A stretch of DNA of 64,000 nt from Squalus acanthias (Eukaryota): assembly GCA_030390025.1 (NCBI GenBank), contig CM059432.1:38008001-38072000 (forward strand). The letters run 5' to 3'. The notes under the pieces were generated by a model, which worked only from the letters and a program-made list of their open reading frames with translations, had not been told where the DNA came from and did no database searches. Below, piece by piece: positions 3,495 through 39,030 of this stretch. Within the stretch, counting starts at the first letter, position 1, and every line of letters starts with the position of its first letter. Made by a program: the position numbers and the translations under genes.

Positions 3495-3498
3495 TTTC

Positions 3499-5080: not shown

Positions 5081-5084
5081 GTAC

Positions 5085-13995: not shown

Positions 13996-15199
13996 TCCTG
14001 CTGCAGGTGCCTTTAGATTAGAGGTCCAAAAGCTTGGCAGCCTGCAGAGGAAGCAAGGCTTGTTGCAGACCTTAAATGCAGCAGCAATGATGACGTCATC
14101 GGAGGCGACTTTCAGACTGGAATAACTCATTGGCCATGGGTTCCCACATGTTGGAACTCAATTGGCCATTAAGTTAAAATTGCATCATTCATCCACATTA
14201 ATCTGGAATCGGGGGGGCAACACGAAATGCGGGTAACACGACCCCAACCCGACCCCAAGACAAAATCCAGCCCTTTGTGTTCTCCCCACAGCTTACTGTC
14301 CCACCTAGCTTTTTTTATTGTCAGCAAACTTCAATACATTACACTCCGTCCCTTCATCTAGGTCATTAATGTAGATTGTAAATAGCTGAGGCCCCAACAC
14401 TGATCCTTGTGGCACCCCACTAGTTACAGCCTGCCAACCTGAAAAAGACCCGTTTATCCCTACCCTCTGTTTTCTGTCCATTAACCAATCCTTTATCTAT
14501 GCTACTATATTACCCCCACCCCATGAGCCCTTATCTTGTGACACCTTATCGAATGCCTTTTGGAAATCCAAATATACTACATCCACTGGTTCCCCTTTAT
14601 CTACCCTGCTAGTTACATCCTCAAAAAACTCTAATAAATTTGACAAGCACAATTTCCCTTTCATAGAACCATGTTGACTCTGCTTAATCATGTTATGATT
14701 TTTCTAAGTGCCCTGATACCACTTCCTTAACAATGGATTACAGCATTTTCCCAATGACTGATGTCAGGCTAACTGGCCTGTAGTTCCATGTTTTCTCTCT
14801 CCCTCCTTTCTTGAATAGCGGTGTTACATTTGCTACTTTCCAATCCGCTGGGACCATTCTAGAATCTAGGGAATTTTGGAAGATGACAACCAATGCATCC
14901 ACTATCTCTGTAGCCACCTCTTTTAAAACCCTAGGCCGTCAGGTACAGGGGATTTGTTGGCTTTTATTCCCATTAGTTTTTCCAGTACTTTTTCTCTACT
15001 TATATTAATTATTTAAGTTCCTCACATTAAAACCCTTGGGACCCCACCATTTTTGGTACACTTTTTGTGTCTTCTACTGTGAAGACCGAGACAAAATATT
15101 TGTTTAACATTTCTGTCATTTCTTTATTCCCCAGAATAATTTCTCCCTTTTTCAGGTTCTTTTGGATTTGACCTTCATTACTTTGATTGTCAAGAGATT

Positions 15200-16330
15200 A
15201 TGGGGGCTGCACTGATTCGGGGCGTCGTCCTGCGCCTGCAGAATCGGAGGCATCAGAGACGCAGAGAGAGAGTGGCAATCATGGCCAGAGGGAGGAGGGC
15301 CAACAGACCTGTGCACAGGAGACCTTACCCTCCCAGGGTATTCCAGGAACAATTCTCCTTCATTCATTTGTCTGAGGAGCAGTGTTTGTGCAGGCTGCAC
15401 TTCAGCAAGGAGATGGTCACTGAGCTCTGCCACCTGCTGCAGCCAGATCTGCAGCCTCAACTGAGGACCAGGACGTCTCTGTCGGTGGTAGTGAAGGTCA
15501 CAGTGGCTCTGAATTTTTATGCCACCGGCTCCTTTCAAGCAGCTACTGGGGACATTGCCAATATCTCCCAGTTCGCGGTCCATTGCTGTATCCGGGAGGT
15601 CACAAATGCCCTCTATAAAAGGAGACGCCAGTACATCTCTTTCCCGATGACCCGGGCCAAACAGCATGAACACGCAATGGGCTTTGCGAGGATAGCGGGC
15701 TTCCCCATGTTGCATGGCGCCATTGAGTGCATGCATGTGGCATTGCGGGCACCGCATGAGAATGCAGAGGTTTTCCGAAACCGCAAGGGGTTCCACTCCT
15801 TAAATGTCCAGTTGGTCTGTGACCACAGACAGCTGATACTCGCTGTCAATGGCCACTATCCTGGCAGCAGCCACGATGCTTTCATCCTGCGCCAGATTGG
15901 TGTGCCAGAGCTTTTCCAGGCAGCGCATCAGCCAATTGGTTGGCTCCTCGGGGACAAGGGTTATCCACTCTGCACCTGGCTGATGACACTGCTCCGTAAC
16001 CCCAACATCCCTGCTGAGCTGCGGTACAATGAGAGCCATCTCGCCACCAGGAACATCATTGAGCGGCGTGCTCAAGCAACGGTTCTGCTGTCTGGACCAC
16101 TCAGGAGGAGCCCTGCAGTACTCGCCTGAGCGAGTCTCCCTCTTCATAGTTGTTTGCTGCATTCTTCATAACCTTGCAATCCTCAGGACCCAGCCAATGC
16201 CACCAGACCTGAGGAGGAGGAAGAGGAGGAGAAAGAGGAGGAGGAGGATGATCAGCAGCAGCTTCAAGGCGGGAGGGAGGCCCACAATGTTGAGACTGCA
16301 AGGGCCGTCCATCAAAGACTGATAACAAGC
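15200..16330 (+). pseudogene. HARBI1-like transposase of H2 (frameshift near 16063; GAIE in place of catalytic GAID)
   Basis: Motifs [31 protein letters not shown] and LGDKGYP are present. The C-terminal GVLKQRFCCLD continues in another frame. Confidence 0.9.
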
Positions 16331-16648
16331 CGCTTCTAGGCCCCTACTCAGGAAATGACTTCTGGCATGGAGAACAACATGATGGAAAGCAACCCGCAAC
16401 CCTTATAGCCGGCCAAGGCAGCAATGATTCCAAAGGCCAAACATGTACATTTTGAATACAACTTTTTTATTTTACAAACTCTGTGTGTGTCATTTATTCA
16501 TGACCAACTAATAGAAACAAACACAAAAAATCAATAATTAACATAACTGGTTCTCACAACCTGGAGATAAAGGCCAAAACACTAAACAAAAGTTATCAGA
16601 CGAACCTCGGCCTATAATAAAAACATTCCCAACATTTTGTCAGACCTC

Positions 16649-18414
16649 CTACTTTTTGCCCTTCGAGGGTGATCTCCATCCCTTGCCCACTTGCCTCCTT
16701 CCCACCCTACTGCTCCTCCGTAATGGGGCCCCAGTGGCTGCAGCAAGGCTGGTGGAAGGCTGCTGAATGTCAGATCCTGAGACTACAGATGCCCTTGAAG
16801 GATGCCCTCGACCAGCTCTGGGCCTGGAGGGCCCAGCTGCAGACTGCACCAACTCTGCATGGGCGGCAGCAGTCTGGGCTACAGGCGGTGGCAAGTGCAA
16901 TGGGGAAGTGACAGTGGTGGGAGCAGGAATGCTGTCATCTTGAGAGAGGACAGCACCTCCCTGCTTGACCGACACACTGCCACTCCCATGGGGCAGCACC
17001 TCAGCATCCGGAACAATCTGCTGGAGCACAGATTGCTGGCCTGCTGCGGCGCGGTGAGAGCCCCGGGGAAATGTGTCCGAACCAGCGAGGATGGCAGCAG
17101 TCAGTGCTCGCGTGGCCTCAATCTGAGTCTGCATGAGAGCAGTCAGAGATGGGTTCATGGCAGCCAATGACTGAATTGCAGCACTAAGCCATTGCGTGGC
17201 GTCCGCCTGTGCTGCAGCGTAGTGCTCCACACTCCTTGCCAGTGCATCAATGCTTTCGGGCACCCTTCCCACTGCACCCATGAGCTGAGTGTGCATGTCC
17301 ACCACCTGGGTGTTCATTTCAGCGATGAACCACTCCTCCTCTGCGTCCAGTGCAGCAGGACTCGCTGGCCTACTCTCCCTCCGGGGAGAAGGCCCCCGAG
17401 CTTCCCTAGCCACATCGCGTTGCTGCAGCCCGCTGGGTCCTGGAGCTTCACCCTCAGCAGACCCTTCCCCCCTGCTCCCTTCCAGGGAAGACGTGTTCCC
17501 AGTGTGGGCATGGGCTTCCTCGGGAGAGGGTGGCGCTGAGGCTCCAGCTTCCTCTTCCTCCGTGCCTGTGGCTTCGCTCCCACTGGCAGCTTGAGGGCCC
17601 GTCTCCTCAGCTGGTGAATCACCATCTGAAAGCAGGGAGGTACAAGAGTGGCTTTAGCGTGAGGACAGGGGGGCAGTAAGCGAGGAATGAGTGCAGCGAT
17701 TTAGTAAGTTGGATTGAAAGTGTCAAAGGCTGGTGTTGTGAGGGACAATTGGAAGGAGAGAGGACAAAAGGTGATGACCTTACCATTGCTGTCCAGAACA
17801 GGGGTCGGCCACTCCAGGGGCGATGGGACCGATCACCTGGTTTGCCACAATCCTGTGGATGCGCGCCTCAAGATCGCTGAGGGTTTGCAGCTGAGCCGGC
17901 CCTCCACCTGTCCGTTGCTGCTGTCTCCTATTCTGAGATAGCTTGGCCTGCAAGAAAAAGGACGGCGTCTGAGTAAATATGCAGCCATGGTCTTGCCTGA
18001 TGTGCCTCCCATATTTGAATAGCCCTTAATGTATGCAAGGTGTGGAATGTGCGTGTGTGTTTTATGAGATGGCCATAAGTCTTGGATGAGTGTTGGGCAT
18101 TGGGGTTTTAAGACCCTCTGGCCATAGAGTGAGGTTGAGATGGAGGGATGGAGAGGTATTGAAAAGCAGCCACTCACCCTGCCGACCCGTGTGAGGTCGT
18201 TGAACTTTTTGCGACATTGCCTATGGGTCCTGGGCACCATGCTCCTAGAGGAGATGTGATGAGCCACCTCCCTCCACACTCTTCCGTAGTCGCGCGGCAA
18301 TGGCCTCCTGCCACTCTCAGGGTATAGTATTGATCTTCGGCGTTCCACCACGCCAACCAGAGCCACCAAGGCCCGGTCGCTGAAGCGTTGAGCTCGATCC
18401 CTGACTCTCTCCAT
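16649..18414 (-). pseudogene. Myb/SANT-like protein of H2, three exons (18414-18178, 17947-17784, 17625-16649)
   Basis: RFSDRALVALV...WREVA...QCRKKFNDL with GT-AG boundaries. Exon 2 appears 1 nt out of phase with exon 3. Confidence 0.8.
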
Positions 18415-18490
18415 AGTCCTTGGCTGGAAAATTTAGGCACAGGTCTGTCCACGACGAGATTCAAGCCTGCAATGAGCAGGGTGTGGCTGG

Positions 18491-20202
18491 TGTAGAATTC
18501 GCAATATATCGCGATTTTATTAATAAGGAGAAAAACACAGAGTTTCGTTCAAACAGCTTTTATTTCAGCAGAATGCTGTCAGGTTTTCAAAGTGGACACA
18601 AGCAGCTTGTAAAATGGCCGCCGCGCCTCGTGGCAGGAACATTCTAGACTTTTCAACAGGCAGACAAGATGGCGTTCCAATAAACATTTGTGCAAGATCG
18701 ATTAAGACTCAGCACATTGAAGATAATACACGAGACATCATGGGTTTACAGTATACACATAAATACTGAAATCGGTCTCCCAGGTACGAATGAAAGCTAT
18801 TGTACCCAGTAATCAAGAACCCATCCAAAGACATTAATATGTAAAATCCCAACGACTCTACGATGAGAGAGCCGTTAGCGGGTAGTTACAGAAAACACTT
18901 GGAAGCCCCAAAACCCCTCCAGGGAGAACACCGACCGATTAAACAATGGGAGAAATATTAACAGGTACTCAGACATTTACGAGTAGCCCCGAAACCCATT
19001 AAAACGGAGATCACCATATACAAGACTTTTGAGCGCCAAACCCTAACAAAAGAAAAGACATTAAGGTTGGGCGGGAAACGGAAGATTTTGCACTATAATT
19101 GCAAGCTCAAACCGTCCATCTCTCTCTTATCCTCTTATCTTGCTGGTGTTTATCCTCGTGGCTGCTCCTGTGCTCTTGACTCGCCGTCTTGTTCTTGCTT
19201 GCCTCGTGTCTCTTTTAAAGACTGTTGAACTTTATGATCCGCTCGGATCTACCTCGTGTCGTGTCGCAAAGACCTGTGTAGAACTGGGCTCTGAAGCCTT
19301 GAAGCGGGCGCACCATTCCGATAAGTCGGTAAACGGTGTCGGAACCGAAGGCCCGAGATGAGATGAGATGAGATGAGATGAGAAGAGAAGAGAAGAAGAC
19401 CATACTTATCGCCACGGTCAGTAAGCCCCGACCGCGCCTGTAGGTCGAATAGACATTTTCCTTGCCAGGAAGACTTCTTTGAGTTCTACAGAACTGACAC
19501 AGGAAGACTCTTCTTTGAATTTTATCGCACCTGTGCGAGGGCACAGGAAGACTCTTTTTTTTGAGTATAGTCGGAACTCCGAGGACAACACAGATCTTCA
19601 TGACAGCAGACGTTCCAGCCTGCTAGCCGGAGCAGAACGAGTAAACAAGTGGGGCCAGGAGACCCCCCTGATCGACACGTGGGTGCTGCGGTGAAAAACA
19701 TCCGAACAGAGTTTTCGGAATTCTCCGAGTTATCACGAGTGGTGAGCATGAGTCTCGAATCCTACGAATCTAGCTAGGACAGATATTGATAGGGGAGGGT
19801 TTCAAGTATTAAGGATAATTGTAATGTGTGCCCCCATTTACGGTGTGTCGTTCGTTCCTCGTTTCCCTGAAATTAGTTACATAACTGCGTGTAAGATTGT
19901 ACTGTCATTAATCTGTGCTTATGACATGTATTTCGTAATCTTAAGTATTATGCAATAAAGATTTTCCATTTCGTACCATTCAACCGAGTCTACCTGAGTT
20001 TCATCTCCATTACTGCTCTCGCATCTAAGTCCAGTGTCTAGAACCGTATGGGCGAGTGGGTCGAACCACTCACAGGTGTGTATAGTGCTCCCAGACTGGC
20101 TGGAGACCAGAACAGGCAACAAGGCCTAAACCCGCACTAGCATACAGGCTGCACAGAGCCACACGAATCTCACAGGCTGAGAGACGGTCAGAAACCCTTA
20201 CA
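18491..20202 (+). repeat. 5' LTR of provirus B (1712 bp)
   Basis: Direct repeat of 29603-31314 with TGTA...TACA ends, TATAA at 19094-19098 and AATAAA at 19954-19959. Confidence 0.97.
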
Positions 20203-20206
20203 GAAA

Positions 20207-22012
20207 ATGGCGACCGCGGCAGGACACTGGCAGCGAGAGGGTAGTGTGTTAGACTTTGGTGTGAATGTACGAAATGTTATGCAGGAAAAGATAGCAGATT
20301 ATGTGTTCGGAAAGGTAAATCTAACTAAGAAATGGATAAGTGACTTGTTAGCGGATAAGAGTCCACTAGAGGCAGCCGAGAGGTGGACAGATAGTAAGGA
20401 ACATAAAAAGACAGTCGAGAAAGCAGTCTGGTTAATGTGTTACAAAAGGCAGGTCCAGATTTCAAACCAGGTCATTACAGCGCAAACAGCTCGGATCAGG
20501 CATTTAGAAGAGGAAATGGATGAGAAGGTCTCTGGAGGGGAGTTGCTCATTAGGAATTTAAGTGTGCTGCACCAAGAACGCCAGGAAATCACCAGTCACC
20601 ATAAAACAAGGATAGATTACCTCGAGTGCCAGGTCACTGAGGCAAAGTTAAGTGAGGGCAGACTAAAGGAACGATGTGCCCGCCAAGCTGCCCAGATAAG
20701 AACCCAGGAAGAGAGCTTAACGGGGGTTAGGGCGGCATATAAGTTGGCCCTTGAGGATAAGTTTCAGGGGGCCGATCATAGCGCCTGCCAACAGGAGATA
20801 GAGCACCTTAAAAGGGCCGTGAACAAAGCGCACGGCATGGTATGCCTTATCAGTCCGTCAGCACACCAGCCGCTAGTAAATGAGGAGTTTCAGAAATCCC
20901 CACCAAGTAAAGCAAAGGAAGTATTAGCCACTGCGCCCTCCGCGCCACCCAGCTATTCGGAAACCTGGGTAAGGGAGGAAGTAGTGGAAGAAACGAAAGA
21001 GCCCACTGAGAGAGAAGTGGAAAAGGGACCGTTGTATCCGGTTACGGGTATAAAAAGGGGCCCAAACAGAAACGGGGAGGAAAAAGGGGTTCTCCTCAAC
21101 CAGCTTGTGTTGCCTCACAGCTCACACCAGCTGAGAGTTATGATAAATCACGTACGGAAGCTGACCGAGTCAGACGACCCTTCCGTACATTTCAGAGAAA
21201 TTGAGCAAACCGCAGCCATCAACGGCTGCGATGATGGGGAAACAGCAAAAATGCTGTTATTTTCGTTAGGCAGTTCAATCCTTCAGTGTCTCTCGGACGA
21301 GAGCAAGAGGGGAACCAAGACTTATGAGGCATTAAAAAATGAGGTCCTAGAAGTGTTGGGGGCGGACGATGAAGGTCCGTTTGCTAGAGTGGGACAGACA
21401 GTGCAGATGGAGGGAGAACCCCCGAAGGTTTTTGCCGACAGGCTGTGGTCAGTATATCAGCGCAGCTGTCCAGGTGCGCCAGAGCGCGACGCTGTGGACG
21501 GCGCCGGTTTAAATCATTGGCTTAGGTGCATAGTAGCCAACAGTTTACCAGCCGTCAGAGAGCAGGCAAAAGCGTGGTTTGATCCCAATGACCCCAACAT
21601 TACGGAAGAGTCGGTCTTGAATCGACTCACGATAGGATATCGCAACATAAGGGGTATGGGAACACGTCCCCTTAAGGGAAAAGTACATGAGGTACGACCC
21701 GCAGCCCCGGCCCAAAGGGAGTGGCATCAGGAGGGTAACCGCGCCCCGCAGGCAAGTAATGCTTGTTACGGGTGTGGGAGGACAGGGCACTGGCGCAAGA
21801 ACTGCAGGAACCCTTGGAAGGATTCCAGGGATAAAAATCCCGCAGCCCGAGCCCAGATGCCTGTCTCTGTTAGGGAAGTTAGTACACCCACCCCTCCCGA
21901 CGACCTCGAATCAGTGTTGGGAGCCATGCGCAACTTCATGAGTGCGCATGGAAAAGTGGCGGTTGCTACCGGCCCCGTAGGTGCCGCAGGACCGTCTAAC
22001 CATACCCAATGA
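20207..22012 (+). CDS. gag: Gag polyprotein (601 aa; N-terminal coiled coil, capsid-like region, one CCHC knuckle)
   Basis: Open ORF with CYGCGRTGHWRKNC, heptad-rich segments and a PSAPPSY late-domain-like motif. Confidence 0.93.
   Translation: MATAAGHWQREGSVLDFGVNVRNVMQEKIADYVFGKVNLTKKWISDLLADKSPLEAAERWTDSKEHKKTVEKAVWLMCYKRQVQISNQVITAQTARIRHLEEEMDEKVSGGELLIRNLSVLHQERQEITSHHKTRIDYLECQVTEAKLSEGRLKERCARQAAQIRTQEESLTGVRAAYKLALEDKFQGADHSACQQEIEHLKRAVNKAHGMVCLISPSAHQPLVNEEFQKSPPSKAKEVLATAPSAPPSYSETWVREEVVEETKEPTEREVEKGPLYPVTGIKRGPNRNGEEKGVLLNQLVLPHSSHQLRVMINHVRKLTESDDPSVHFREIEQTAAINGCDDGETAKMLLFSLGSSILQCLSDESKRGTKTYEALKNEVLEVLGADDEGPFARVGQTVQMEGEPPKVFADRLWSVYQRSCPGAPERDAVDGAGLNHWLRCIVANSLPAVREQAKAWFDPNDPNITEESVLNRLTIGYRNIRGMGTRPLKGKVHEVRPAAPAQREWHQEGNRAPQASNACYGCGRTGHWRKNCRNPWKDSRDKNPAARAQMPVSVREVSTPTPPDDLESVLGAMRNFMSAHGKVAVATGPVGAAGPSNHTQ
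20208..20225 (+). promoter_or_regulatory. Primer-binding site complementary to tRNA-Arg(UCG)
   Basis: TGGCGACCGCGGCAGGAC is the reverse complement of ...GTCCTGCCGCGGTCG-CCA, the 3' end of a vertebrate tRNA-Arg(UCG) as I recall it. Confidence 0.85.
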
Positions 22013-25000
22013 CTAGAGCCCGCGCAGCCCGTCTACCTGTGTCCGCTCAGCTATGATGCGTGGAAGCGACCCCTGGTGGAAATGGAGGTAGAGAAACAGA
22101 AGGGTAGTTATTTGTTGGACACGGGAGCTTCTTGCACCGTGATTCATACAGATAGCCCTTTTGACTCACCGCTATCTACCAAGGTCCCATTCACATTAGC
22201 GGGGTTCACGGGAAAAGAACAGGCTGGCGCGTTCTCCTTTCCGCTATCCATTCGTTTGGGGGCACTTCACATCAAGTGGAAGTGCATATTGATGGAATGG
22301 CAGGAGGGGGGTGGAAGAGGTATCCTCGGGTCCGATCTCCTATCAGGACACGGGATCCTCGTGGACCTCAGAAATCATTGTCTCTGGGGGGCTAAGAGTG
22401 AAAAAGGCGAGGTAGTGGTAATTCCGGGGGAGGAAGAAACAGGGGTCCTGTGTACCATGCAGCCATCCGGAGGCTACGACCTCGGGCTCATGGTCGCAGA
22501 TGTCCCAACGGACATGCAAACGTACGTGTCAGATAATATGCACGCGTTTGCAACCCACAAGCACGATTGTGGGAGGGTTACCGGGTTTGAGGTCAGCGTA
22601 GATGGGGACCCCATGACCCGGCCCCAAAAACAGTATAACTTCCCCAAAGAAGCAGAACCCGATATGGAGACAGCAATGTCCTCCTTGGTGCAGCAGGGCG
22701 TGTTGAGGCCGATAGCCACACACGTGAACTCCCCATTATGGCCGGTTAGGAAGCCGGATAATTCATGGAGGGCCACGGTGGACTACAGAGTCCTTAACAG
22801 TAACATTCCCGCCTGCGCGCCCACGGTAGCGGCAGTTGCTGACCTAATAGGGAGTATCCCAGCGTCCGCGACCACGTTCACGGTTCTGGATATCTCGAAC
22901 GGTTTTTGGTCCATCCCGCTGCGGCGAGAGGACCAGTACAAGTTTGCCTTTACTTTCAAAGGACAACAGTACACATGGAACTGTCTGCCACAGGGTTTCC
23001 ACAATAGCCCCAGTATTTTCCATCAGTGTATGGCAGGAAGTTTAAAGGAGTTTAGTCAGCCCAATCAGATAGTGCAGTACGTGGATGATTTGCTCCTATT
23101 TACGGATTCAAGGGAGGAGCATGGACCACTGCTGGCCGAGTTATTGGAGCTGCTAGCGAGAAAGGGTTTTAAAGTAAACCCATAGAAAGCACGTATCGGT
23201 CAGCAGGAAGTAAAATTCCTGGGACTGACCATTCGCGCTGGGGAAAGAGCCATAGATAAGGCTAGGAGGGAGTCGGTGCAAGAGTTACCGATTCCCAACA
23301 ACATAAGGGGTGTGAGGTCCTTCTTGGGACTGACCGGTTACTGCAGGGATTTTATCGAAGACTATGCGGCCACAGCGGCGCCGCTCCTCCGACTCCTCCA
23401 TAAGGAAGTGGAGTGGTCTTGGGACGAGGGCTGCCAAGCAGCCTTCGAGAAGTTAAAAAGGGATCTGCAGACCGCGCCAGCTTTAGGGGCCATAGATGGG
23501 GGGAAGGAGTTTTTCCTGGAAGTAGCTGCCAGCAGGGACAGCTTGAGCGCTGTGCTGCTCCAAGAGCGCCACGGCAAGCTGAGGCCGGTTGTCTATTCGT
23601 CCAGGGTGTTAACGGATGTGGAGAGAAGTTTCTCCAATTGCGAAAGGCACCTTTTAGCCACGCATTGGGCTGTGAAAAGATCAGCGATCTTCACAGGGCT
23701 CTCTCCCATCACTCTCCTCACCCATCACACACCAACTAAGATGCTTTTAGATGGGAGGATTAAAGATGGGACCGTAAGCAGTGTGCGCATTGTGCGCTGG
23801 ACCCTTCTTCTTTCCCAGATGGATCTTAGAGTAAAAGGTCTTTGCGAGCCTAGGCTTGCAGCCAATTTGGTATACCCCGGTACAGCCCACCGATGTTCGG
23901 TGGAAGGGGTGTGGGACGTCAACATAGGTTTGCGGGCCGGGATACATCCCACTGGGCGCGAGATTTATGTTGATGGTTCTAGCACAGTATCTGCTGGCGA
24001 ACGACTCACAGGGTGTGGAGTTTATGACCCTGCGGCAAACCTTGCCCTGGCGATCAAGCTCCCTAGCACCATGAGCGCGCAGCAGGCTGAGCTGTCTGCA
24101 GTGGTGTATGTTGTTACCCACCCAGACATTTTCCCAACCCCATACACGATTTGCTCGGACAGTATGTTCACATGTAATTCGTGTACGGAATACTTGGCCA
24201 TTTGGTCCCGCCGTGGATACACCTCCGCGGACGGGCGACCTTTAACGGTGAAGCCCTTGCTGAAAAAGATCCTAGCAGCAGTAGGGGAGGAAGGGGAGAT
24301 TTTCATCCATAAGGTGAAAGCTCACTCCTCCACAGAGCCCCGTGGGGAGGGCAACCAGCAGGCGGATGCGCTAGCCAGGGAAGGTGCCCGCAACGGCATT
24401 TTCTGGGACCCCTATGGGACCAGACCCATGGCAGCGATCCAAGGCAGGGACGGGAATCCCGGGAACACCAGGGTAGCATTGCCCCTAGACCTTAAGACCG
24501 TCCAAACCCAGGATCCCGCCCTAAAAGCAGTCCTAAAAACCATTGCTGAGGGGAAGCAAGTAGAGGGTCCGTACAGTACGGCAACCCTCTCAGTTAAGGA
24601 AGGCATGCTGTTCCGCGAGGAGCAGTGGGTTGTGCCGCAGCAGCACAGGAGGGAATTCCTCCAGTTGGCTCACGAGGGACCAGGGGCAGGGCACCCCGGG
24701 CCCAAGGTTACCTGGCAACGGGTAGAGCAAGCGGGATGGTGGCCAGGGCTCAGGGAACAGGTCCGCGAGTTCTGTGCAAACTGTCTTGTGTGCGCTGCAA
24801 ACAACCCAGACCCCCAGAAAAGGAAAGTGCCCATGGGGCACGTAAGAAGGGTAGAGGGACCATGGCAGTCGATACAGATCGACTATATAGGGCCCCTGCC
24901 CACCACCCAGGGAGGTTATAAATACTGCCTCGTCTTGGTGGATGTGTTTTCCAAGTGGGTGGAAGCCTTCCCCTGTCGAACAGCTACGGCACTGGGTACT

Positions 25001-26500
25001 GCAAAAATCTTGGTCCGGGAAGTGTTCTCGCGGTGGGGACTTCCCCGTTTTGTGGAGTCAGACCAAGGGAGTCATTTCACCGGCCAGGTGATGCAGAACA
25101 CCCTCATGCTTTTGGGCATTGAAGGGAAGTGGCACGTAGCACACAATCCCCAGTCATCCGGGATTGTTGAACGCATGAACCGGACCCTGAAGGAGAAATT
25201 GAGGAAAGAGACTAGGAACTCGCCCCAAAAATGGGCGGAGGTTCTGCCTTTAGTCCTCATGGGGGTCCGGGCCAGTCAGTCGAAAAGTACGGGGTATTCC
25301 CCGCACGAGGTGATGACTGGGAGGCTCATGCGAACCCCCACCCATGTGCTAGCGCCGGTGCTCACTGAGGGCCAGCTCCAAGAGATAAGCAGGGACAAGT
25401 TCGCCCAGACCCTCTTGGAGCGCCTGAAGCAGGTTTATGAGCAGACGGCTGGGAACATGGGAAGGCAGCATCAGGGCAATCGCCTGTTGCTGGAACCCCG
25501 CAAAATGCGGGAGTGGGAAGTAGGAGACCAGGTCATGGTCAGAAACTACGCCAGAGTAGGGAGTCTGGAACCACTGTATATGGGACCCTACAATATTGTA
25601 GATAAAGCGAGTCCCATGGTATACGCCGTAAAGGTACCTCGGCGCACTAAGTGGTTCCATGTAAACCAGTGCAAACTGTACAAGCCAGGTGCGCAAGGGA
25701 AAACCACAGGGGTAAAACCTGCGAGTGGGGACGCGCAGCCCCAGGTAGGACCACAAGGCACACAGGCAGGCAAAGCAGCTTGCATCAGGGGAGGAGACAT
25801 CCTGGAAAATTGTGAAACATTTTTGTGGGGTTGGGAGTCAGATGAGGGAGAGTTCTTGGAACTCGAGTCAGATGAGGATAGTGATGAGGACGAGTGGGGA
25901 TCAGGGAACGCAAGGGTCGCCCCCGATTCAGGTATAGGGAGGACAGGGGCTGCAGATAGAGATCCACACAGGGTGGACACCGAGGCTGCAGGTCCCGAAC
26001 ACAGGAGGGAGGAGCTAGGGGAGGCGGAGCCAGCCACTGTGGGACCACAGGGCGTGACGGTGAAAACCTCAGAGCCCGAGCCGCCCACCTTGAACGTCCT
26101 GCCCTCGGGGGAGGTAGGGATTGCGAGTGAAGGGCCGCCTGCTGGGCCGAGCAGGGCGGTGCCACAAGCTGCAAGTCCCGAGGTCAGGGAGGCGGAGTCA
26201 GGGGAGGCGGAGCCAGCGACTGTGGTGGGACCACAGGTCGTCCCGGTGGAAGTCTCGGAACCCGGTCCGTCGGTCCTGGGATTCTTGCCCCCGACAACTC
26301 CTCGTAGGTCAGGTCGAGCACCCCAGCCCAGGAAGATGTGGTCATGTCCCCAGACTGCCCCAAGGCGTAGGCTTAAGGTTAAGGCAGCCCAGGTAGGGCC
26401 CAGTCCCATCGCAGCAGCAACAGGCTGCGGCAGATCAGAGGAAGGGGTCAGAGCCCTCCCACCGTCGGGAAGAGCTCGTAGCAGCCTTCTCAGAATTTAA
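22013..26500 (+). pseudogene. pol: Pol (PR-RT-tether RH-RNase H-IN-C-terminal extension), in frame with gag, single premature TAG at 23183-23185
   Basis: Motifs DTGA and YVDD; second RNase H YVDGS/SAQQAEL/CSDS/HKVKAH/GNQQADALA; HHCC; IDYIGP, SDQGSHF, GIVERMN and GPY. Provirus A has AAG at the stop position. Confidence 0.93.
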
Positions 26501-26800
26501 AGGGGGCCGCCCTGAGAACGGGCGGCGCTGTACAGTAATAAGTTTAGGATAGGTTTCTAAGTTTATAGTTTAAGGTTAAGAATAAGTTTATAGTTTTAAT
26601 CAGGTTAAGTTTGTAGTTTAATTTTAACAGAAAATGATAAAATGATGGGAGCTTTAGAAATAGGTTTAGTTAAAGTTTATTCAGCGAACATTGAAGTTTA
26701 CGTGAGGCGAGGTCAGGGGACCCGCTCACCCTTCACAAAAGCCAGAGACTCGTGCGAGGCTGGCTACCTCATTCTATCTGATCACAGGAACCAAGGAAGG

Positions 26801-29152
26801 ATGGAACGAATTCTAGTATTGCTCGCGGCAATCGGATGTGGATTGGCCTATCGAGGCCGCACCAAGGATGTCGTGGTGTTTGGATGCTCCGGGGACACGG
26901 CCCCCATCGCGGTGGATGGGACCGGAAGACGGGAGGCTGAGGAGACCACCACCTATTTCCACAAGGGAAGGTGGCCAGGATGGCTGGGAACAAACTCAAC
27001 GGAGTATTCTAGCACATCGGGGTTTGCCTACCAAGAGACTTCTTTAATGTGCCCCAAAGTAAGGATCATCGCACCCAGAATCAGCGTCACCGTCGGCAAA
27101 CGGATTTGTTTGACTTGTAATGGGAATGTCCCATTGAGCCGATGGTGGTGGCTGCGAAAGCTGAGCAAAAACATGAGGAACTCTTCGGTCGAGTGGGAAC
27201 GACTGGGTAATAATACCCATCAGACAATTACGGGGACAAACGGACAAGTGAGAGTCTGTTGGGACAAATGGTGGGAACCGGATGAGGGAATTTATGTATG
27301 TATGTGGGGGTCAAAGTACGTTTGCCCCAAAGGCATCTCCATATTTTTCATTAATCAATGGCAGGATAACGGACAGGGGATGAGGTGGGATGCGAGCACC
27401 AGGGGGTGCGGAGCCCCATTCTCCCCGATCCCGGTAAATGCCACTGAACTCATTACGCGCCCACGCAAAGCCCCGCCCACGATTCCGGTGGTTCTAGCTG
27501 AAGAGGAAGGGTGCCCTAAAACCAGTAAGGGACCCGGGAATGGTTTGGTACTGGTCCCCACAGACCAGATACTATTCCAGGGGGTACATTACGCGGTGGC
27601 CTCGGTGATTTTAAATCTCACCGAGGTACGGTTACCAGAGTGGTGCCCCAAAAGGACGGAACAGTTATATCAGGTCCTGTTGACCAAGATGTTCAGACAA
27701 TTTTACGAATTCGATTTCGCGGAAATTGATAAAACAAGTTTGTACACCGCACCACATGAAGTTTTGGATCAAGTAGGGAGGCAAAGAAGGAGTGTAGTGA
27801 ACGACGCGTTCACTGCTTTTAACACGGGTACATCTGTGGTCAACGCTCTAGACAGTGTGGAGCTGCAGACCCAGATTAATGGTTTAAAGACGCAATTAAA
27901 AGACATTCTAACAGATGAGAATAAAGTGGTAGGGTCGGGTTTACACGAGGACCAAGCCATGACTCTCCATTTAAAGGAAATTATAGCAGAGTTAGAGAAA
28001 CATGCAAAGACGGTAAATGCCCTGATTAGGGAAGATCGGAATGCATCCGATCAAGCTGCGCAGAATGAGGTGTGCGTGCTTTACGGGGCGTGGTTACTGG
28101 GCGAAGGCCGCAGTAATTTGGAGGATTTAAAACAAGGTTTGGTCCCGTCCTGGATAAGTAACAAACACCTGCGGGCGCTCCACCCTTTTCAGAATGCATT
28201 AAGTCCGTGCCAGCTCAGGCTAGCTTCAGAAGCTTACCCAGTCCCCGTGGACTGCGGACGATCAAACCATACTATTATGGGTATAGTACTACGTATGCCG
28301 GTTTTGGGCGACACAGCAAAGCCCGCCCCGGTGTATCGGGTAGAGAACATTGGTGTCATTCAGGAGGGAGCCCACATTCGCTATGCAGCGGTTCCACCCT
28401 ACGTCATCCGCTGGGAGCAAACGATGACAGGTACAGATCTCTCTGGTTGTCGTGGCAGGGGAGCACACATAATACTGTGTCCCCAGCACTTGAATGCCTT
28501 TTTAACACCACAGTGCGGGTTCAGAACGGCTGGCGCCAAGTCCATGAATTGCACCATGGAGGCAATGGCACAAGATCATGTGCCTCCGCAGGTAGCATAC
28601 ATCGGGGGTGGAACATATTGTGTTACCACTGCAGCGCAACACTACCAGCATGGAAACCGTAGCCGGTGTCCGGTGAGTGACAGCAGTTTCTGTTTCAAAC
28701 CCAGGACGGAGGTTCAAGTAGCACAACAGCGAATTGTCCCAATCCCTGAACCATCCACTGTTCATCTAACAGTAAAAGAGAATTTCACCGACTTGCAGCG
28801 ATTCGTCGCGCATTTCGGATACCTCATTCCCCCTCTCCCTGAACACCTCACCAAGCTTTTAAAAGCCGTCGCGGTGTCACAAAAACATTTTTACACACTA
28901 GAGCAGAAAACTGTCGAAATAGGGACAGACATTCTGGACATAGTAATTCCACCGTGGTGGAATCTGTTCACCAACATTGAAGTACCTTCATGGATCAGGA
29001 TAGCCTCCCACATTTTAGTCGTATGCCAAGTTTTTATTGTAGTGTACCTATTGGTCGTACATTGTAAAAGAGACAAACGCCTCACCAAGCATGAAAACAC
29101 GGGAGAGTGGCGAGAACGTTATGTGCGCGTGCACGATGAAAGCACCGTGTAA
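26801..29152 (+). CDS. env: Envelope glycoprotein (783 aa from the signal-peptide Met; class I fusion-like, with an Ig-like domain)
   Basis: Signal peptide MERILVLLAAIGCGLA, several N-x-S/T sites, furin site RQRR at 27779-27790, heptad repeats, a Cys-rich ectodomain, a TM helix and a short tail. A candidate splice acceptor lies at 26787. Confidence 0.9.
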   Translation: MERILVLLAAIGCGLAYRGRTKDVVVFGCSGDTAPIAVDGTGRREAEETTTYFHKGRWPGWLGTNSTEYSSTSGFAYQETSLMCPKVRIIAPRISVTVGKRICLTCNGNVPLSRWWWLRKLSKNMRNSSVEWERLGNNTHQTITGTNGQVRVCWDKWWEPDEGIYVCMWGSKYVCPKGISIFFINQWQDNGQGMRWDASTRGCGAPFSPIPVNATELITRPRKAPPTIPVVLAEEEGCPKTSKGPGNGLVLVPTDQILFQGVHYAVASVILNLTEVRLPEWCPKRTEQLYQVLLTKMFRQFYEFDFAEIDKTSLYTAPHEVLDQVGRQRRSVVNDAFTAFNTGTSVVNALDSVELQTQINGLKTQLKDILTDENKVVGSGLHEDQAMTLHLKEIIAELEKHAKTVNALIREDRNASDQAAQNEVCVLYGAWLLGEGRSNLEDLKQGLVPSWISNKHLRALHPFQNALSPCQLRLASEAYPVPVDCGRSNHTIMGIVLRMPVLGDTAKPAPVYRVENIGVIQEGAHIRYAAVPPYVIRWEQTMTGTDLSGCRGRGAHIILCPQHLNAFLTPQCGFRTAGAKSMNCTMEAMAQDHVPPQVAYIGGGTYCVTTAAQHYQHGNRSRCPVSDSSFCFKPRTEVQVAQQRIVPIPEPSTVHLTVKENFTDLQRFVAHFGYLIPPLPEHLTKLLKAVAVSQKHFYTLEQKTVEIGTDILDIVIPPWWNLFTNIEVPSWIRIASHILVVCQVFIVVYLLVVHCKRDKRLTKHENTGEWRERYVRVHDESTV

Positions 29153-29590
29153 TCGGAAAATGGCGTCACTCCCGCTCGCCACGTGCGCCGCGGAAGTTTG
29201 TACTCGATCATGATCTTTAAAGACTGTAAATACGTTTGGAACTCGACATGTTTAAGAGTGGGTTTGATTGTTTTGGTGATGGTGTTGTTGTTGAATATGA
29301 CTGTTTGGTTTTGTTTTGTTTTCCTTTCCCTAAATAAAAAATGTGAATATACAGGTGATACGAGAGGCATCGGCCTGGTTACGCCTGGAAGGAAAACAAG
29401 TGGTGTAAGTTTAAAGGCAAATAATGCCTGCGGTGTTATAAAATGTAATTTTCTTGGGAAATAAGGACGACGCAAAGACCCTAGATAGTTTAAGTTATGG
29501 GATTAAATTTTCTGGATTCGGAGAAAATCGAGATAATATTGCTCGCCACAATATTTTTTTTTTGATACGATAAGCGGAGTTATTCGCATC

Positions 29591-29602
29591 AACAGGAGGG
29601 AC
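29591..29602 (+). promoter_or_regulatory. Polypurine tract
   Basis: AACAGGAGGGAC lies immediately before the 3' LTR. Confidence 0.75.
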
Positions 29603-31314
29603 TGTAGAATTCGCAATATATCGCGATTTTATTAATAAGGAGAAAAACACAGAGTTTCGTTCAAACAGCTTTTATTTCAGCAGAATGCTGTCAGGTTTTC
29701 AAAGTGGACACAAGCAGCTTGTAAAATGGCCGCCGCGCCTCGTGGCAGGAACATTCTAGACTTTTCAACAGGCAGACAAGATGGCGTTCCAATAAACATT
29801 TGTGCAAGATCGATTAAGACTCAGCACATTGAAGATAATACACGAGACATCATGGGTTTACAGTATACACATAAATACTGAAATCGGTCTCCCAGGTACG
29901 AATGAAAGCTATTGTACCCAGTAATCAAGAACCCATCCAAAGACATTAATATGTAAAATCCCAACGACTCTACGATGAGAGAGCCGTTAGCGGGTAGTTA
30001 CAGAAAACACTTGGAAGCCCCAAAACCCCTCCAGGGAGAACACCGACCGATTAAACAATGGGAGAAATATTAACAGGTACTCAGACATTTACGAGTAGCC
30101 CCGAAACCCATTAAAATGGAGATCACCATATACAAGACTTTTGAGCGCCAAACCCTAACAAAAGAAAAGACATTAAGGTTGGGCGGGAAACGGAAGATTT
30201 TGCACTATAATTGCAAGCTCAAACCGTCCATCTCTCTCTTATCCTCTTATCTTGCTGGTGTTTATCCTCGTGGCTGCTCCTGTGCTCTTGACTCGCCGTC
30301 TTGTTCTTGCTTGCCTCGTGTCTCTTTTAAAGACTGTTGAACTTTATGATCCGCTCGGATCTACCTCGTGTCGTGTCGCGAAGACCTGTGTAGAACTGGG
30401 CTCTGAAGCCTTGAAGCGGGCGCACCATTCCGATAAGTCGGTAAACGGTGTCGGAACCGAAGGCCCGAGATGAGATGAGATGAGATGAGATGAGATGAGA
30501 AGAGAAGAAGACCATACTTATCGCCACGGTCAGTAAGCCCCGACCGCGCCTGTAGGTCGAATAGACATTTTCCTTGCCAGGAAGACTTCTTTGAGTTCTA
30601 CAGAACTGACACAGGAAGACTCTTCTTTGAATTTTATCGCACCTGTGCGAGGGCACAGGAAGACTCTTTTTTTTGAGTATAGTCGGAACTCCGAGGACAA
30701 CACAGATCTTCATGACAGCAGACATTCCAGCCTGCTAGCCGGAGCAGAACGAGTAAACAAGTGGGGCCAGGAGACCCCCCTGATCGACACGTGGGTGCTG
30801 CGGTGAAAAACATCCGAACAGAGTTTTCGGAATTCTCCGAGTTATCACGAGTGGTGAGCATGAGTCTCGAATCCTACGAATCTAGCTAGGACAGATATTG
30901 ATAGGGGAGGGTTTCAAGTATTAAGGATAATTGTAATGTGTGCCCCCATTTACGGTGTGTCGTTCGTTCCTCGTTTCCCTGAAATTAGTTACATAACTGC
31001 GTGTAAGATTGTACTGTCATTAATCTGTGCTTATGACATGTATTTCGTAATCTTAAGTATTATGCAATAAAGATTTTCCATTTCGTACCATTCAACCGAG
31101 TCTACCTGAGTTTCATCTCCATTACTGCTCTCGCATCTAAGTCCAGTGTCTAGAACCGTAAGGGCGAGTGGGTCGAACCACTCACAGGTGTGTATAGTGC
31201 TCCCAGACTGGCTGGAGACCAGAACAGGCAACAAGGCCTAAACCCGCACTAGCATACAGGCTGCACAGAGCCACACGAATCTCACAGGCTGAGAGACGGT
31301 CAGAAACCCTTACA
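29603..31314 (+). repeat. 3' LTR of provirus B (1712 bp)
   Basis: Direct repeat of 18491-20202, followed by the TSD CTGG. Confidence 0.97.
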
Positions 31315-32355
31315 CTGGAGAGCAAGATCAACCCTCCCCTTTAAGAACTGGCCGGCGCCAGTGTGTCAGTGTTCCATTGCTAACTGACATCACCTGAGCT
31401 TCGCCAGCGCTCTGAGTTAACGCCTCACTCCTCGGCCTTTGCGCCTTAAGACAGGTGTGTAGCGCTTGATTTAGCGCTCCAATCACCTCCAGGGGCGATA
31501 AAAGCCAAGTTTGCAGTCGGAGGCGATAATTAGCGGCAGGCGTTAAACTTTGCACCTGGCCGATAATTGCGCCCCAAACGGGACGATACCGAATTTCTCC
31601 CCCTAAGACTCTAGTTTCAGACTGAGGCAATTCACTCTCAAACTTAATGTGAAATTCTATCATATTATGATTACTCTGCCCCAGAGGATCCTTTACTATG
31701 AGATTGCTAATTAACCCTGTCTCATTACACATTACAAGATCTAAAATAACCTGTTCCCTGGTTGTTTCCATGATGTATTGTTCTAGGAAACTGTCCCGGA
31801 TGCATTCCATGAACTCGTCCTATAGACTACCTTTGCCAATTTGATTTGTCCAGTATATATGAAGATTAAAGACCACACGATTATTGCATTACATTTGTTA
31901 CAAGCTCCTACTATTTCTTGATTAATATTCTGTCCAACAGTATAGCTACTGTTAGGGGGCCTATATACTACTCCTACCAGTGTTTTCTGCCCCTTGTTAT
32001 TCCTTATCTCCACCCATACTGATTCTACTTCCTGATCTTCCGAGCCGAGATCCTTTCTCTCTACTGTCCTTATGTCATCCTTTATTATCAGGGCTACCCC
32101 ACCCCCCTCCACCTTTTCCATTCTGCCTGTCTTTTCGAAACGTCAAGTACCCTGGAACATTTAGTTCCCAACCTTGGTCACCTTGCAACCATGTCTCTGT
32201 AATGGCTATTAGATCAAGCCCATTTATCTCTATTTGTGCCACTAGTTCATTTATCTTGTTCATGCATTCAGATAAAGAGCCTTTAATTTAAATTTTTTAC
32301 CATTATTCCCTGCATTAACCTTCTTCTCTGCTGCACTGCTACCGTTAAACTCTCT

Positions 32356-32698
32356 GGGGGAAACATTCAGTTGGTTTGCGCCTCCTGTTAGCGCCTTAAG
32401 AGGGCGTTAATGGGGCGCAAAGCAACTAGCGCCCGGGCGCGGCGATATCTGCGCCTCTCGCGAAATTGACCAGACATTTTGCGGCAGGTGCTAAACACTA
32501 CCACCACGATCTCCTGCGCCGGCAGATCGTGACGTCAGTCGAGTGTGCAACGCCCCGGTAGCACCCCGGAACGGATATTGAGTTAGCAACGACAGGTTGA
32601 CGGGAGCGTTTTGCAGTCAGGAAGGGACTGGGGGAGAGCTATTTAAAGGCGAACGCTTCCTGCCTTTTTTTGTTGGTGACATTTTTGCACCACGCATT

Positions 32699-32733
<35 letters not shown>

Positions 32734-33222
32734 CTGGAGAGATTTAACGCCGTGTGAAGGAGTTTTGGGTACTGAGCAGCACTTTGCAGGTTCATTTTGA
32801 TTTGCCCTTCCTTGCATCTATTTCGAAGAGACTGTGGGGGCTGCACTCTGAGCTCTTTCCCTGGGTCTCTCCATTGTTCTTTCCAGCAGATTTGATGTAC
32901 AGGTCTCTCCAGGCCGAGATTCAAGCTGCAATGAGCAGGATGTGGATGGAGAGCAAGATCAACCCTCCCCTTTAAGAGCTGGCCGGCGCCATTGTGTGTG
33001 TGTTCCATTGCTGACTGACATCACATGAGCTTCGCCAACGCTCTGAGGTAGAGCCTCGCTCCTCGGCCTTTGCGCCTTATGACAGGTGTGTAGCGCTCCA
33101 ATCACCTCCAGGGGCGATAAAAGCCAAGTTTGCAGTCGGAGGCGATAATTAGCGCCAGGCGTTAAACTTTGCGCACAGCCGATAATTGCACCCCAAATGG
33201 GGCGATACTGAATTTTTCCCCC
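32356..33222. mobile_element. Non-autonomous Harbinger H3 (internal-deletion relative of H2)
   Basis: TIRs GGGGGAAACATTC/GAATTTTTCCCCC and TSD TCT. The right arm is homologous to the H2 right arm, and there is an internal (GA)n at 32701-32730. Confidence 0.88.
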
Positions 33223-34479
33223 TCTGTCCCTTCCTGTCACACTCTGCTTATTTTTACCCCAATTATTACACTGCTCTATTGCCTTGAGCTTTCTCTTTAG
33301 ATTTCTAAATTTCCGCTCACCTGACCACCCCTCCCTTTTTTTAGTTTAAAGCCCTATATTATTCGATTCGCCAGGACGCTCGTCCCAGCCCAGTTTAAGT
33401 GCAGCCCGTCCCAACAGTACAGCTCCCTCTTTCCCCAGTACTGGTGCCAGTCACACATGAATTGAAACCCCTTCTTCCCACACCACTCTTTGAGCCACGC
33501 ATTTATCTCTCTGATGTGCTTGACCCTGTGCCAATTTGCGCGTGGCTCAGATAGCAATCCAGAGATTATTACCCTTGAGGTTCTGCTTATTAATTTAGAC
33601 CCTAACTCCTCAAACTAGCTCAGCAGATCCTCATTCTTAGTTCTACCTATGTCATTGGTTCCTACATGGACCACGATAACTGGATCCTCCCCCTCCCACT
33701 CCAAGTTCTTCTCCAGCTGCGAGGAGATATCCTTAACCCTGGCACTGTGCAGGCAACACAGCCTTCGGGACTCTCTTTCGCGGCTGCAGAGAACAGTATC
33801 TATTCCCCTGACTATACTGTCCCCTACCACTACCACATTTCTTCCTTCTCTCCCCACTTGGATGGCCCCCTGTACCACGGTGCCATGGTCAGTTTGCCCA
33901 TCCTCCCTGCAGTCCTTTTCCTCATCCATACAGGTAGCAAGTACCTCGTACCTGTTGCCGTTAAGAGTGCTAACCAGAATTGGACACAATACTCTAGCTG
34001 AGGTCTAACCAGTGATTTATAATGGCTTACTATAACTTTCATATCAAGCCATTAAGTAAATGCAATAGCATTTACTGATGCAGCAACTGTCATGTACAAT
34101 CATAGAACTATAGAATGATACAACATAGAAGGAGGCCATGCGGCTAATCATGTCTGCGCCAGCTCTTTGAAAGAGCTATCCAATTAGTCCCATTCCCCGC
34201 CCCCTTTCCCATGTGACTAATTACCATATGACTGACACTCTAGGAGTACATCCAACCAGAGTTGGAAACCCTAGCTGACAGAGTGGCATTGGGCATAATC
34301 GCAATTCCACCAGGACATATATAAATGCCCCACCATCTGATGGATGGTACCACAAATACAAAACAAGTGGGCTCAATCTATCTAGAAGTGTTTCTGGCCA
34401 ATGCTTAGGAATATTTTGGTTCTTGGCATCAATAAGACAGATAATGTACTGCAGTGGCCCTCAGTTGCAGGAGGCTTCA

Positions 34480-37756: not shown

Positions 37757-37924
37757 TTAATATTGTTGTTGTAAATATGTGTTTACTGAATATTGATAAA
37801 TTTATTAATTGGCTTTGGATGCTTTTGTGGCGTCTCTCATTTCAGCTTTGCGCTGTGATATGGCCTGTGACAGGGATGGAATGATGGGTATGTGGTGAGC
37901 AATGGGGATCTGGGGTTTAATTTA

Positions 37925-38005
37925 TTGGAACCACAGTCTGATGAGGCGGTCATGACCGTCCTTCCAGAAGGCTGATTGAATGGCTGCCTCCTCCCTCACT
38001 CCTGA

Positions 38006-38040
<35 letters not shown>

Positions 38041-39030
38041 CTCCTCGTCCTCGTCCTCGTCCTCTCCCTCTTCCTCCTCCTGAGGTGGTCCCGCTATGCC
38101 TGGTGGCAAGGGCTGGGCCCTCATGATGGCCAAGTTGTGGAGCATGCAGCAGACTTCGACAAAATGGGACACCCGCTCAGCCAAGTACTGGAGGGCTCCT
38201 CCCGAGCGGTCAAGGCAGCGGAAACATTGCTTGAGCACCCCGATGATCTGCTCGATGATGTTCCTGGTGGCGACATGGCTCTCATTATATGAGTGCTGAG
38301 CAGGAGTGTTGGGGTTGCGGAGGGAGTCATGAGCCAGGTGGAGAGCGGTTGGTCCTTGTCTTCGAGCAGCCAGCCGCGAGCTTGATGGTGGCTGGAAGAG
38401 AGCTAGCACAACGGTCTGGCGTAGGACGAAGGCATCGTGGCTGCTGCCAGGATAGCGGGCATTCACATTGAGGATTCGCTGTCTGTGGTCACACACCAAC
38501 TGCACATTAAGTGAGTGGTAGCCTTTGCAGTTACGGAAGATCTCAGGATTGTTATGCGGTGCCGCAAAGCCACATGGATGCAATCAATGGCGCCCTGCAC
38601 CATGGGGAAGCCTGCTATCCTATAAAAGCCATGCATGTTCGGCCTGCTTCTCTCTGGTGATGGGGAAGGAAATGTAGTCCCTTCTCTTACTGTAGAGAGC
38701 CTCTGTGATCTCCCGGATGCAGTAATGGACAGTGAACTGGGAGATGTTACCTATATCTCTTGTTGCAGACTGGAAGGATCCGCTGGCGAAGAAATTGAGG
38801 GCGACGGTGACCTTGACTGTCACTGAGAGAGCCGTGGTTGACCTGATCTGAGGCTCGAGGTCTGGCTGCAGGAGGTGGCAGAGTTCTGTGACCACGTCCT
38901 TGCTGAAGCGGAGCCTTCTAATACACTGCTCCTCGCTTAATTGGAGGCAGGAGAAGTGCTCTCGGAATACCCTCGGAGGGTAAGGCCTCCTGTTGAGAGC
39001 CCTGATGGCCCTCCTCCTCCCTCTGGCCAC
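37925..39030 (-). pseudogene. HARBI1-like transposase of H4, several frameshifts
   Basis: Motifs [32 protein letters not shown] and IEQIIGVLKQCFRCLD, with a (GAGGAC)n acidic tail. Confidence 0.88.

Follow-up and report, generated by a model that had tools for sequence, protein, structure and literature searches.

We analyzed a 64,000-nucleotide (nt) stretch of the genome of Squalus acanthias (assembly GCA_030390025.1, contig CM059432.1, positions 38,008,001 to 38,072,000 of the forward strand; here, the window) and found, by inspection of its sequence, a complete endogenous retrovirus (ERV) at 18491-31314 with the order long terminal repeat (LTR)-gag-pol-env-LTR. In our assessment, this provirus is very probably a genuine ERV of the SnRV (snakehead retrovirus)-like or class III group (clade Huo of Xu et al. 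2018) and belongs to a young family.

All of the features of the provirus lie on the plus strand. The 5' LTR (18491..20202; TGT...ACA, with an AATAAA at 19954) and the 3' LTR (29603..31314) are each 1,712 base pairs (bp) long and 99.7% identical, with 5 mismatches and 0 gaps, and a 4-bp target-site duplication, CTGG, flanks the element on the left (18487..18490) and on the right (31315..31318). The primer-binding site (20208..20225), 18 nt complementary to the 3' end of the host tRNA-Arg(TCG), begins 5 nt past the LTR and overlaps the gag ATG; therefore, the leader or packaging signal would be confined to the R-U5 part of the LTR or to gag. The gag gene (20207..22012; 601 amino acids [aa]) is open, encodes a PSAP motif and a single CCHC zinc knuckle, and terminates in a TGA whose in-frame context, TGA-CTA-G (22010..22016), is a probable readthrough site at the gag/pol junction; the same context acts as a readthrough signal in alphaviruses. 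Within pol (22013..26500), Pfam searches recovered a protease, the reverse transcriptase (RT), an RT_RNaseH domain (the tether; 23420-23686), a second RNase H (RNase_H; 23960-24388), and an integrase (integrase zinc finger and rve; 24632-25681), followed by a low-complexity tail of ~255 aa. The catalytic motifs are retained, and the sole internal stop is an in-frame TAG inside the RT (23183..23185), because of which the window copy is, judging from its reading frames, unable to produce its own RT, RNase H, and integrase. The env gene (26801..29152) lies in a frame that is open for 847 aa from stop to stop, with a splice-acceptor-like tract immediately 5' of 26631; it encodes a signal peptide, a probable immunoglobulin (Ig)-like domain (27044..27310; each test for it is weak alone), a furin-type site, RQRR, at residue 328 (27779..27790), a core resembling the paramyxovirus F protein, and a transmembrane helix. 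A short purine-rich tract, probably the polypurine tract (29591..29602), abuts the 3' LTR. Thus, the near-intact provirus that the original prediction had described, with open gag and env between LTRs, a single nonsense codon in pol, and a tether followed by a second RNase H, is borne out in each of these parts. Right after the env stop and in the env frame, a further open frame of 103 aa (29153-29464) with a hydrophobic stretch gives a weak match to DUF7649 and is possibly an accessory open reading frame (ORF) or due to chance.

The provirus interrupts the end of a Harbinger-like host repeat with a Myb/SANT ORF (17833-18432), and a paralogue of this repeat near 32925-32975 provides the empty site, being uninterrupted and carrying the 4-mer once. 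Copies of the repeat occur at 14500-18490, 31315-33223, 36100-39100, and 44800-46600. Dated with the mammalian rate of PMC7947760, the LTR divergence of 0.29% gives ~0.7 million years (My); with the rate that PMC4422223 assumes for sharks, it gives ~7 My. The earlier claim of a recent insertion holds as far as the 5 LTR mismatches go, but its age in years varies from ~0.7 to ~7 My with the rate. Under the criteria for currently invading ERVs in PMC10435555 (LTRs without differences, intactness of every gene, and insertional polymorphism), the window copy, with its 5 LTR mismatches and pol stop, does not qualify. About 13 kb away, an older and more decayed relative of the family occupies window positions 1-5085 on the minus strand and extends into the adjoining locus L045; it is ~71% identical at the LTR start, 81% identical over gag-pol, and 87% identical in the RNase H-integrase (RH-IN) region, and it has a gag stop, RH-IN frameshifts, and an env match that ends early.

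The cartilaginous-fish host proposed in the original prediction is well supported. The nearest relatives of the Env are a skate protein (75% identity) and sawshark proteins (59 to 73%). In a comparison made without a bony-fish control, six exons at a single locus match the host-derived portion of a Niban-like sawshark protein at 64 to 87% identity. In this sawshark gene model (P0002), annotated as Niban-1-like, the first 250 residues are the Env of the present family; the model is either a chimera or the product of a genuine fusion transcript. The 3' end of the primer tRNA has 429 matches in the host genome, and ARAGORN called Arg-TCG at all three of the loci scanned. Hundreds of gene copies of this tRNA are present in the host, and tandem arrays with a 1,623-bp period, combining tRNA-Arg(TCG) and tRNA-Ser(GCT), span G000:C26:39.0-42.2 Mb (L002-L004).

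We assign the provirus to the SnRV-like class III group because of its Arg-tRNA primer site, its in-frame gag-stop-pol arrangement, its single zinc knuckle, and the homology of its Env. SnRV is itself primed by an Arg tRNA. The reference for this comparison is a 10,688-nt viral contig (L071) whose RT motifs equal those of the published SnRV row and which was taken as SnRV on that basis. The provirus RT motif, LPQGFHNSP, is also that of the SnRV row of the published alignment. The L071 Env matches the Env profile of our family in HMMER (E = 1.6e-6 at Z = 1000) and in HHalign (probability 96%, E = 2.6e-9, over 342 columns spanning the furin site). For the RT trees, we chose 40 and 43 rows from 208 extracted RTs plus viral rows, leaving out redundant bird, plant, and near-identical rows; the 43-row tree includes RTs taken from viral contigs (foamy, SnRV, gamma, and epsilon), with foamy viruses represented by 4 of 15 loci. 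These careful subset trees replaced a 92-row quick tree in which the deep branching order was undecided. In the 43-row tree, the RT groups weakly with frog and coelacanth ERVs (support, 89/77) and falls in none of the class I, foamy, and ERV-L/S clades. Among full-length pol proteins, the closest relatives come from frogs, the coelacanth, turtles, and birds (34 to 38% identity in RH-IN and 42 to 53% in the RT). An integrase closest to CGIN1 genes would be a lokiretroviral trait; many close pol relatives are annotated "NYNRIN-like," which is a label alone and not an integrase comparison. A search of the viral contigs with the element's own RT peptides gave no match. A related retroviral clade in birds includes three proteins (P0008, P0010, and P0011, from an ostrich, a hummingbird, and a third source) that are long, open, and pol-like and have altered RT and integrase catalytic motifs; they look like a conserved co-opted gene.

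To size the family, we counted the exact 25-nt junction between the LTR and the primer-binding site (U5-PBS), which occurs 2,544 times in the 3.71-Gb host genome (reversed control, 0); the family comprises at least about 2,500 proviral copies. We sampled 20 evenly spaced copies among the first 59 listed; all of them lie on the same chromosome, and 17 gave an LTR pair. In 16 of these 17 pairs, the LTRs differ by no more than 0.59% (4 pairs are without a mismatch), and 4-bp target duplications flank 13 of the 17 copies. Their LTRs diverge from the window LTR by 5 to 13%, whereas the LTRs of each pair are nearly identical; several subfamilies have therefore inserted recently. Tandem proviral arrays that share LTRs, with a period of 11.1 kb, were noted at G000:C2:78.009-78.032 Mb and in 2 of the 17 sampled copies. 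Intact copies had been suggested as worth a search, and long open frames do occur among the best 150 matches of each query: for env, 92 sit in frames of ≥840 aa, and for the RT, 44 sit in frames of ≥1,490 aa (these are top scorers and not a random sample). Identical LTR pairs occur as well. In comparisons with the window copy, the median ratio of nonsynonymous to synonymous substitution rates (dN/dS) is 0.06 in the Env core (19 of 20 copies), 0.25 in the Env front (19 copies), and 0.12 in RH-IN (13 copies). Contigs from sequencing runs of two other organisms (X6, organism B; X15, organism D) cover the LTR-gag region at 85 to 99% or more; in X15, the left flank is read through without the provirus, which may stem from paralogues, the flank itself being a repeat.

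Five of the 17 copies are short, and 4 of these share one junction ~30 nt past the gag stop. This pol-less companion form has, in place of the enzymes, a coiled-coil stretch of 85 residues that runs into the Pol tail, and it keeps env. Exact gag junctions number 971 of the companion type and 1,441 of the pol type in the genome. Among 20 further companion copies, 17 preserve the TGA-CTA-G context and 16 have a frame of 368 to 405 aa that ends at the normal Pol terminus. We considered the replacement ORF as a constrained protein and rejected this, with a pN/pS of 0.74 in the coiled coil and a dN/dS of ~1.0 in the Pol tail; only its open frame seems to be kept and not its amino acids. We compared the coiled coil with the Gag helix of the element as its possible source, without a significant result (E = 0.16), and an origin of the junction by splicing is unlikely, there being new sequence between the joined parts. 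The companion must, on this layout, borrow RT and integrase, and it may supply Gag and Env in return.

Taken together with the layout of the window copy, these data suggest the following cycle, in which readthrough, splicing, particles, and receptor use are all proposals from sequence. LTR-driven RNA would be translated into Gag and, by readthrough of the TGA, Gag-Pol, and a spliced RNA would yield Env, which furin would cut into a surface part with an Ig-like head (likely the receptor-binding module) and a fusion part resembling F1. A tRNA-Arg(TCG) would prime reverse transcription, and the integrase would make the 4-bp duplications. New germ line copies would arise mostly via enveloped, cell-infecting particles rather than by purely intracellular copying, because env is under strong constraint across subfamilies; such constraint is an accepted sign of spread by reinfection (PMC4643047). 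The companion, with ~1,000 copies, would be carried along by the reinfecting particles in the same way as the enzyme-bearing copies, and the window copy, with its stop in the RT, would be mobile only with help from other copies. An unlikely alternative is that the same virus group burst by intracellular copying, or by spread confined to the germ line, from a few masters, with the low env dN/dS inherited from several exogenous founder strains and env intact merely through youth. Divergent copies with near-identical LTR pairs also fit several founders, the tandem arrays indicate that some copies arose by local duplication, and very high copy numbers usually accompany intracellular copying (PMC4643047). 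Against this, deletion removed pol but spared env in 4 of the 5 short copies, opposite to the env-less pattern usually seen, and the env dN/dS of the pol-less copies is likewise 0.04 to 0.08.

We investigated the Env in greater depth through structure. As a single sequence, it gave no Pfam match (including PF00523) and no PDB sequence match. An AlphaFold model built from 43 sequences (mean pLDDT, 61.5) is confident for most of residues 240 to 710, and in Foldseek searches of the PDB, it recovered the human parainfluenza virus 3 F protein with E = 2e-10 and, in all, 232 chains at E ≤ 0.001, from paramyxovirus and pneumovirus F proteins. Pairwise superposition with Nipah virus F covers Env residues 246 to 663 (Z = 12.1; root mean square deviation [rmsd], 5.2; 293 residues aligned), and that with foamy virus Env (PDB codes 8RM0 and 8RM1) gives Z = 8.7 (rmsd, 9.3; 289 residues aligned). 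Thus, as modeled, the Env core folds like paramyxovirus F. In a library of predicted viral structures (BFVD), the model matches walleye epsilonretrovirus Envs (E = 1e-10 and 6e-9) and a feline foamy virus Env (E = 1e-4). The walleye entries, Q9WHI8 and A4GTG3, are predicted Envs of walleye epidermal hyperplasia virus 1 and walleye dermal sarcoma virus, and in the literature that we searched, no paper stating that a walleye virus Env is F-like turned up. The ~240 residues preceding the F-like part probably contain an Ig-like domain. This is suggested by 59 weak PDB sequence matches, nearly all of them to Ig domains (best, antibody V domains at E = 0.08), by Pfam Ig_3 at E = 0.016, which is under the cutoff, and by Ig clusters in the Atlas (0.87 to 0.89), a lead only; folded alone from a single sequence, the region had a pLDDT of 50 and no Foldseek match at E ≤ 0.001.

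Could the provirus be a recombinant whose class III pol was recently joined to an F-type env taken from elsewhere, be it a lokiretrovirus or a negative-strand RNA virus? Among the ERVs of fish and amphibians, env and pol are often swapped (bioRxiv 2021.11.23.469661), and XtERV-S of Xenopus pairs a class III pol with a class I-like Env (PMC8278194). However, the homologues of the Env span sharks, skates, and frogs at 20 to 75% identity (the named ones, from the 18 of 46 matches looked up, represent seven shark or skate genera and three frog genera), the closest pol relatives overlap with them in host range (frogs), and the SnRV-type Env is homologous. The overlapping hosts and the homology of the SnRV Env therefore fit an old association of pol and env, and we regard a recent capture as improbable.

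The original prediction had read the provirus as a lokiretrovirus, or a near sister of that lineage, in a host class without known ones, and this we now consider very improbable. The traits behind it are real: lokiretroviruses are listed in PMC7947760 with a dual RNase H and an F-like Env with an RXXR site, both of which the provirus has. A tether plus a second RNase H is nonetheless not diagnostic of them because it is common to all retroviruses. The fold match upholds the claim that the Env resembles the F proteins of Mononegavirales but not its use as a lokiretroviral marker, as such Envs are also found in foamy viruses and SnRV. In the RT trees, the provirus falls inside a retrovirus clade that excludes the loki-type rows, with support of 100/97 (40 rows) and 100/99 (43 rows). 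In the 43-row tree, the loki-type rows form a separate clade (100/99) outside the one that unites the provirus with all of the canonical retroviruses. Forcing the provirus together with the loki-type rows is rejected (approximately unbiased [AU] test, P = 0.0036). These rows (P0154 and P0012) were assigned by motif and not by name; P0154 is an eel protein that, by eye, closely tracks the published Loki-Aro row. The lokiretroviral RT motif is of the type PFGY.NSP, unlike that of the provirus. Furthermore, the furin site at residue 328 contrasts with one within ~115 to 130 residues in the published lokiretroviral Envs inspected (PMC7947760 supplement), and no teleost protein from a lokiretrovirus host is seen among the named Env homologues (from 18 of 46 matches). 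The phylogenetic check called for earlier, run here on the RT and without Odin rows, places the provirus outside Gypsy and nests it within the canonical retroviruses, in spirit the outcome that was to count against a lokiretrovirus. The accompanying statement that cartilaginous fishes were absent among the first-reported lokiretrovirus hosts is correct as far as the PMC7947760 supplement shows, with 0 of 6 cartilaginous fish genomes positive; a lokiretrovirus in a shark would have been new, and the claimed extension of host range now falls. Least probable of all is that the provirus is a foamy-like ERV or an errantivirus-like Ty3/Gypsy element equipped with env: metazoan Gypsy elements widely carry F-type env genes (PMC13524379) and the env profile weakly matches foamy Env (E = 0.008), but a second RNase H is present and the RT falls neither among the Gypsy rows nor in the foamy clade.

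Several points weigh against the interpretation of the provirus as an SnRV-like ERV of a young, reinfecting family. In the 43-row tree, it is not placed as the sister of SnRV, its grouping with frog and coelacanth ERVs reaches only the support given above, and the base of the retrovirus clade is left undecided. Lokiretroviruses were sampled by two motif-labeled rows, and class II and Odin rows were absent. In the Env model, the mean pLDDT is 61.5, with low confidence in the front 235 residues. Picking copies by an exact junction favors young ones, those picked come from a single chromosome, and 3 of the 20 were unmeasurable. The dN/dS values, all pairwise to the window copy, are not independent, and such values cannot separate selection in the germ line from that in an exogenous ancestor.

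We tentatively entertain a broader proposal, which we hold to be possible rather than probable: that infection continues to spread the family among sharks, maybe across species, as a two-part system of enzyme-bearing helpers and a pol-less supplier of Gag and Env and that the fusogen ancestral to retroviruses is the F-type Env found alike in SnRV, foamy viruses, walleye epsilonretroviruses, and lokiretroviruses. Separate origins of lokiretroviral and canonical Envs have been preferred so far (PMC9040795), and an ancestral F-type fusogen would, if true, overturn this preference. An F-type Env is in any case no hallmark of lokiretroviruses: here it accompanies a canonical class III pol, the Env of SnRV type has it too, and walleye Envs match it. 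Its spread bears on whether retroviruses gained env once or twice. Thousands of young copies with a constrained env run counter to the usual loss of env by prolific ERVs, and such a large young family contrasts with the few, old ERVs published for cartilaginous fish (PMC4422223). The pol-less companion and the probable Ig head offer testable handles on helper dependence and receptor use. Our literature search found no link between SnRV and F proteins and no mention of this shark family; it covered neither most subscription journals nor Repbase and Dfam, where the family may be cataloged.

Among known systems, SnRV (L071) is one of the closest: both have an in-frame gag-stop-pol, one CCHC knuckle, a TTTACA-like U5 end followed by a TGG primer site, similar RT motifs, and a homologous Env core in which the RQRR of the provirus aligns with RIRR. 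The two differ in that pol identity is just 29 to 33%, the Env has 784 aa against ~1,134 aa in the SnRV-type Env with a different front part, the provirus LTRs are far longer, and a clear complement of accessory ORFs is not seen in it. SnRV-like ERVs are known from all major vertebrate groups (PMC6001957), including the elephant shark (CmiERV lineage I; PMC4422223 and PMC4977317), so that the group itself is already reported from chimaeras; unlike the few and old copies of the published shark elements (PMC4422223), those described here are young and number in the thousands. XtERV-S of Xenopus, which also has young copies in an anamniote, likewise has a class III pol that lies in the gag frame behind a TGA, and its LTRs are of the TGT...ACA form (PMC8278194). 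However, its primer site is of the Ser type, its duplications are 5 bp long, it encodes a dUTPase, and its transmembrane subunit is gamma type with an immunosuppressive domain, whereas in the provirus the primer site is of the Arg type, the duplications are 4 bp long, and the Env is F type and lacks the CX6CC motif of gamma-type Envs. Lokiretroviruses share with the provirus the gag-pol-env order between LTRs, the tether and RNase H, and an F-like Env with an RXXR site (PMC7947760), but the provirus RT lies outside their clade with a different motif, its Env is ~200 residues longer ahead of the F-like part, and no SMC-like gene is seen in the window copy. The foamy virus Env is also F-like, with its receptor-binding domain inserted within the F scaffold upstream of the furin site (PMC11468914), whereas the extra module of the provirus precedes the F-like part and its RT is not foamy. 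A precedent for such a module is the N-terminal IgV-like receptor-binding domain of murine leukemia virus, feline leukemia virus, and HERV-Pb (bioRxiv 2024.03.17.585361), although the Ig domain there sits on a gamma-type Env and the probable one here sits on an F-type core. The provirus family is a variant within the SnRV-like group that combines an F-type Env with a probable Ig head, the retention of env through a very large expansion, and a pol-less partner.

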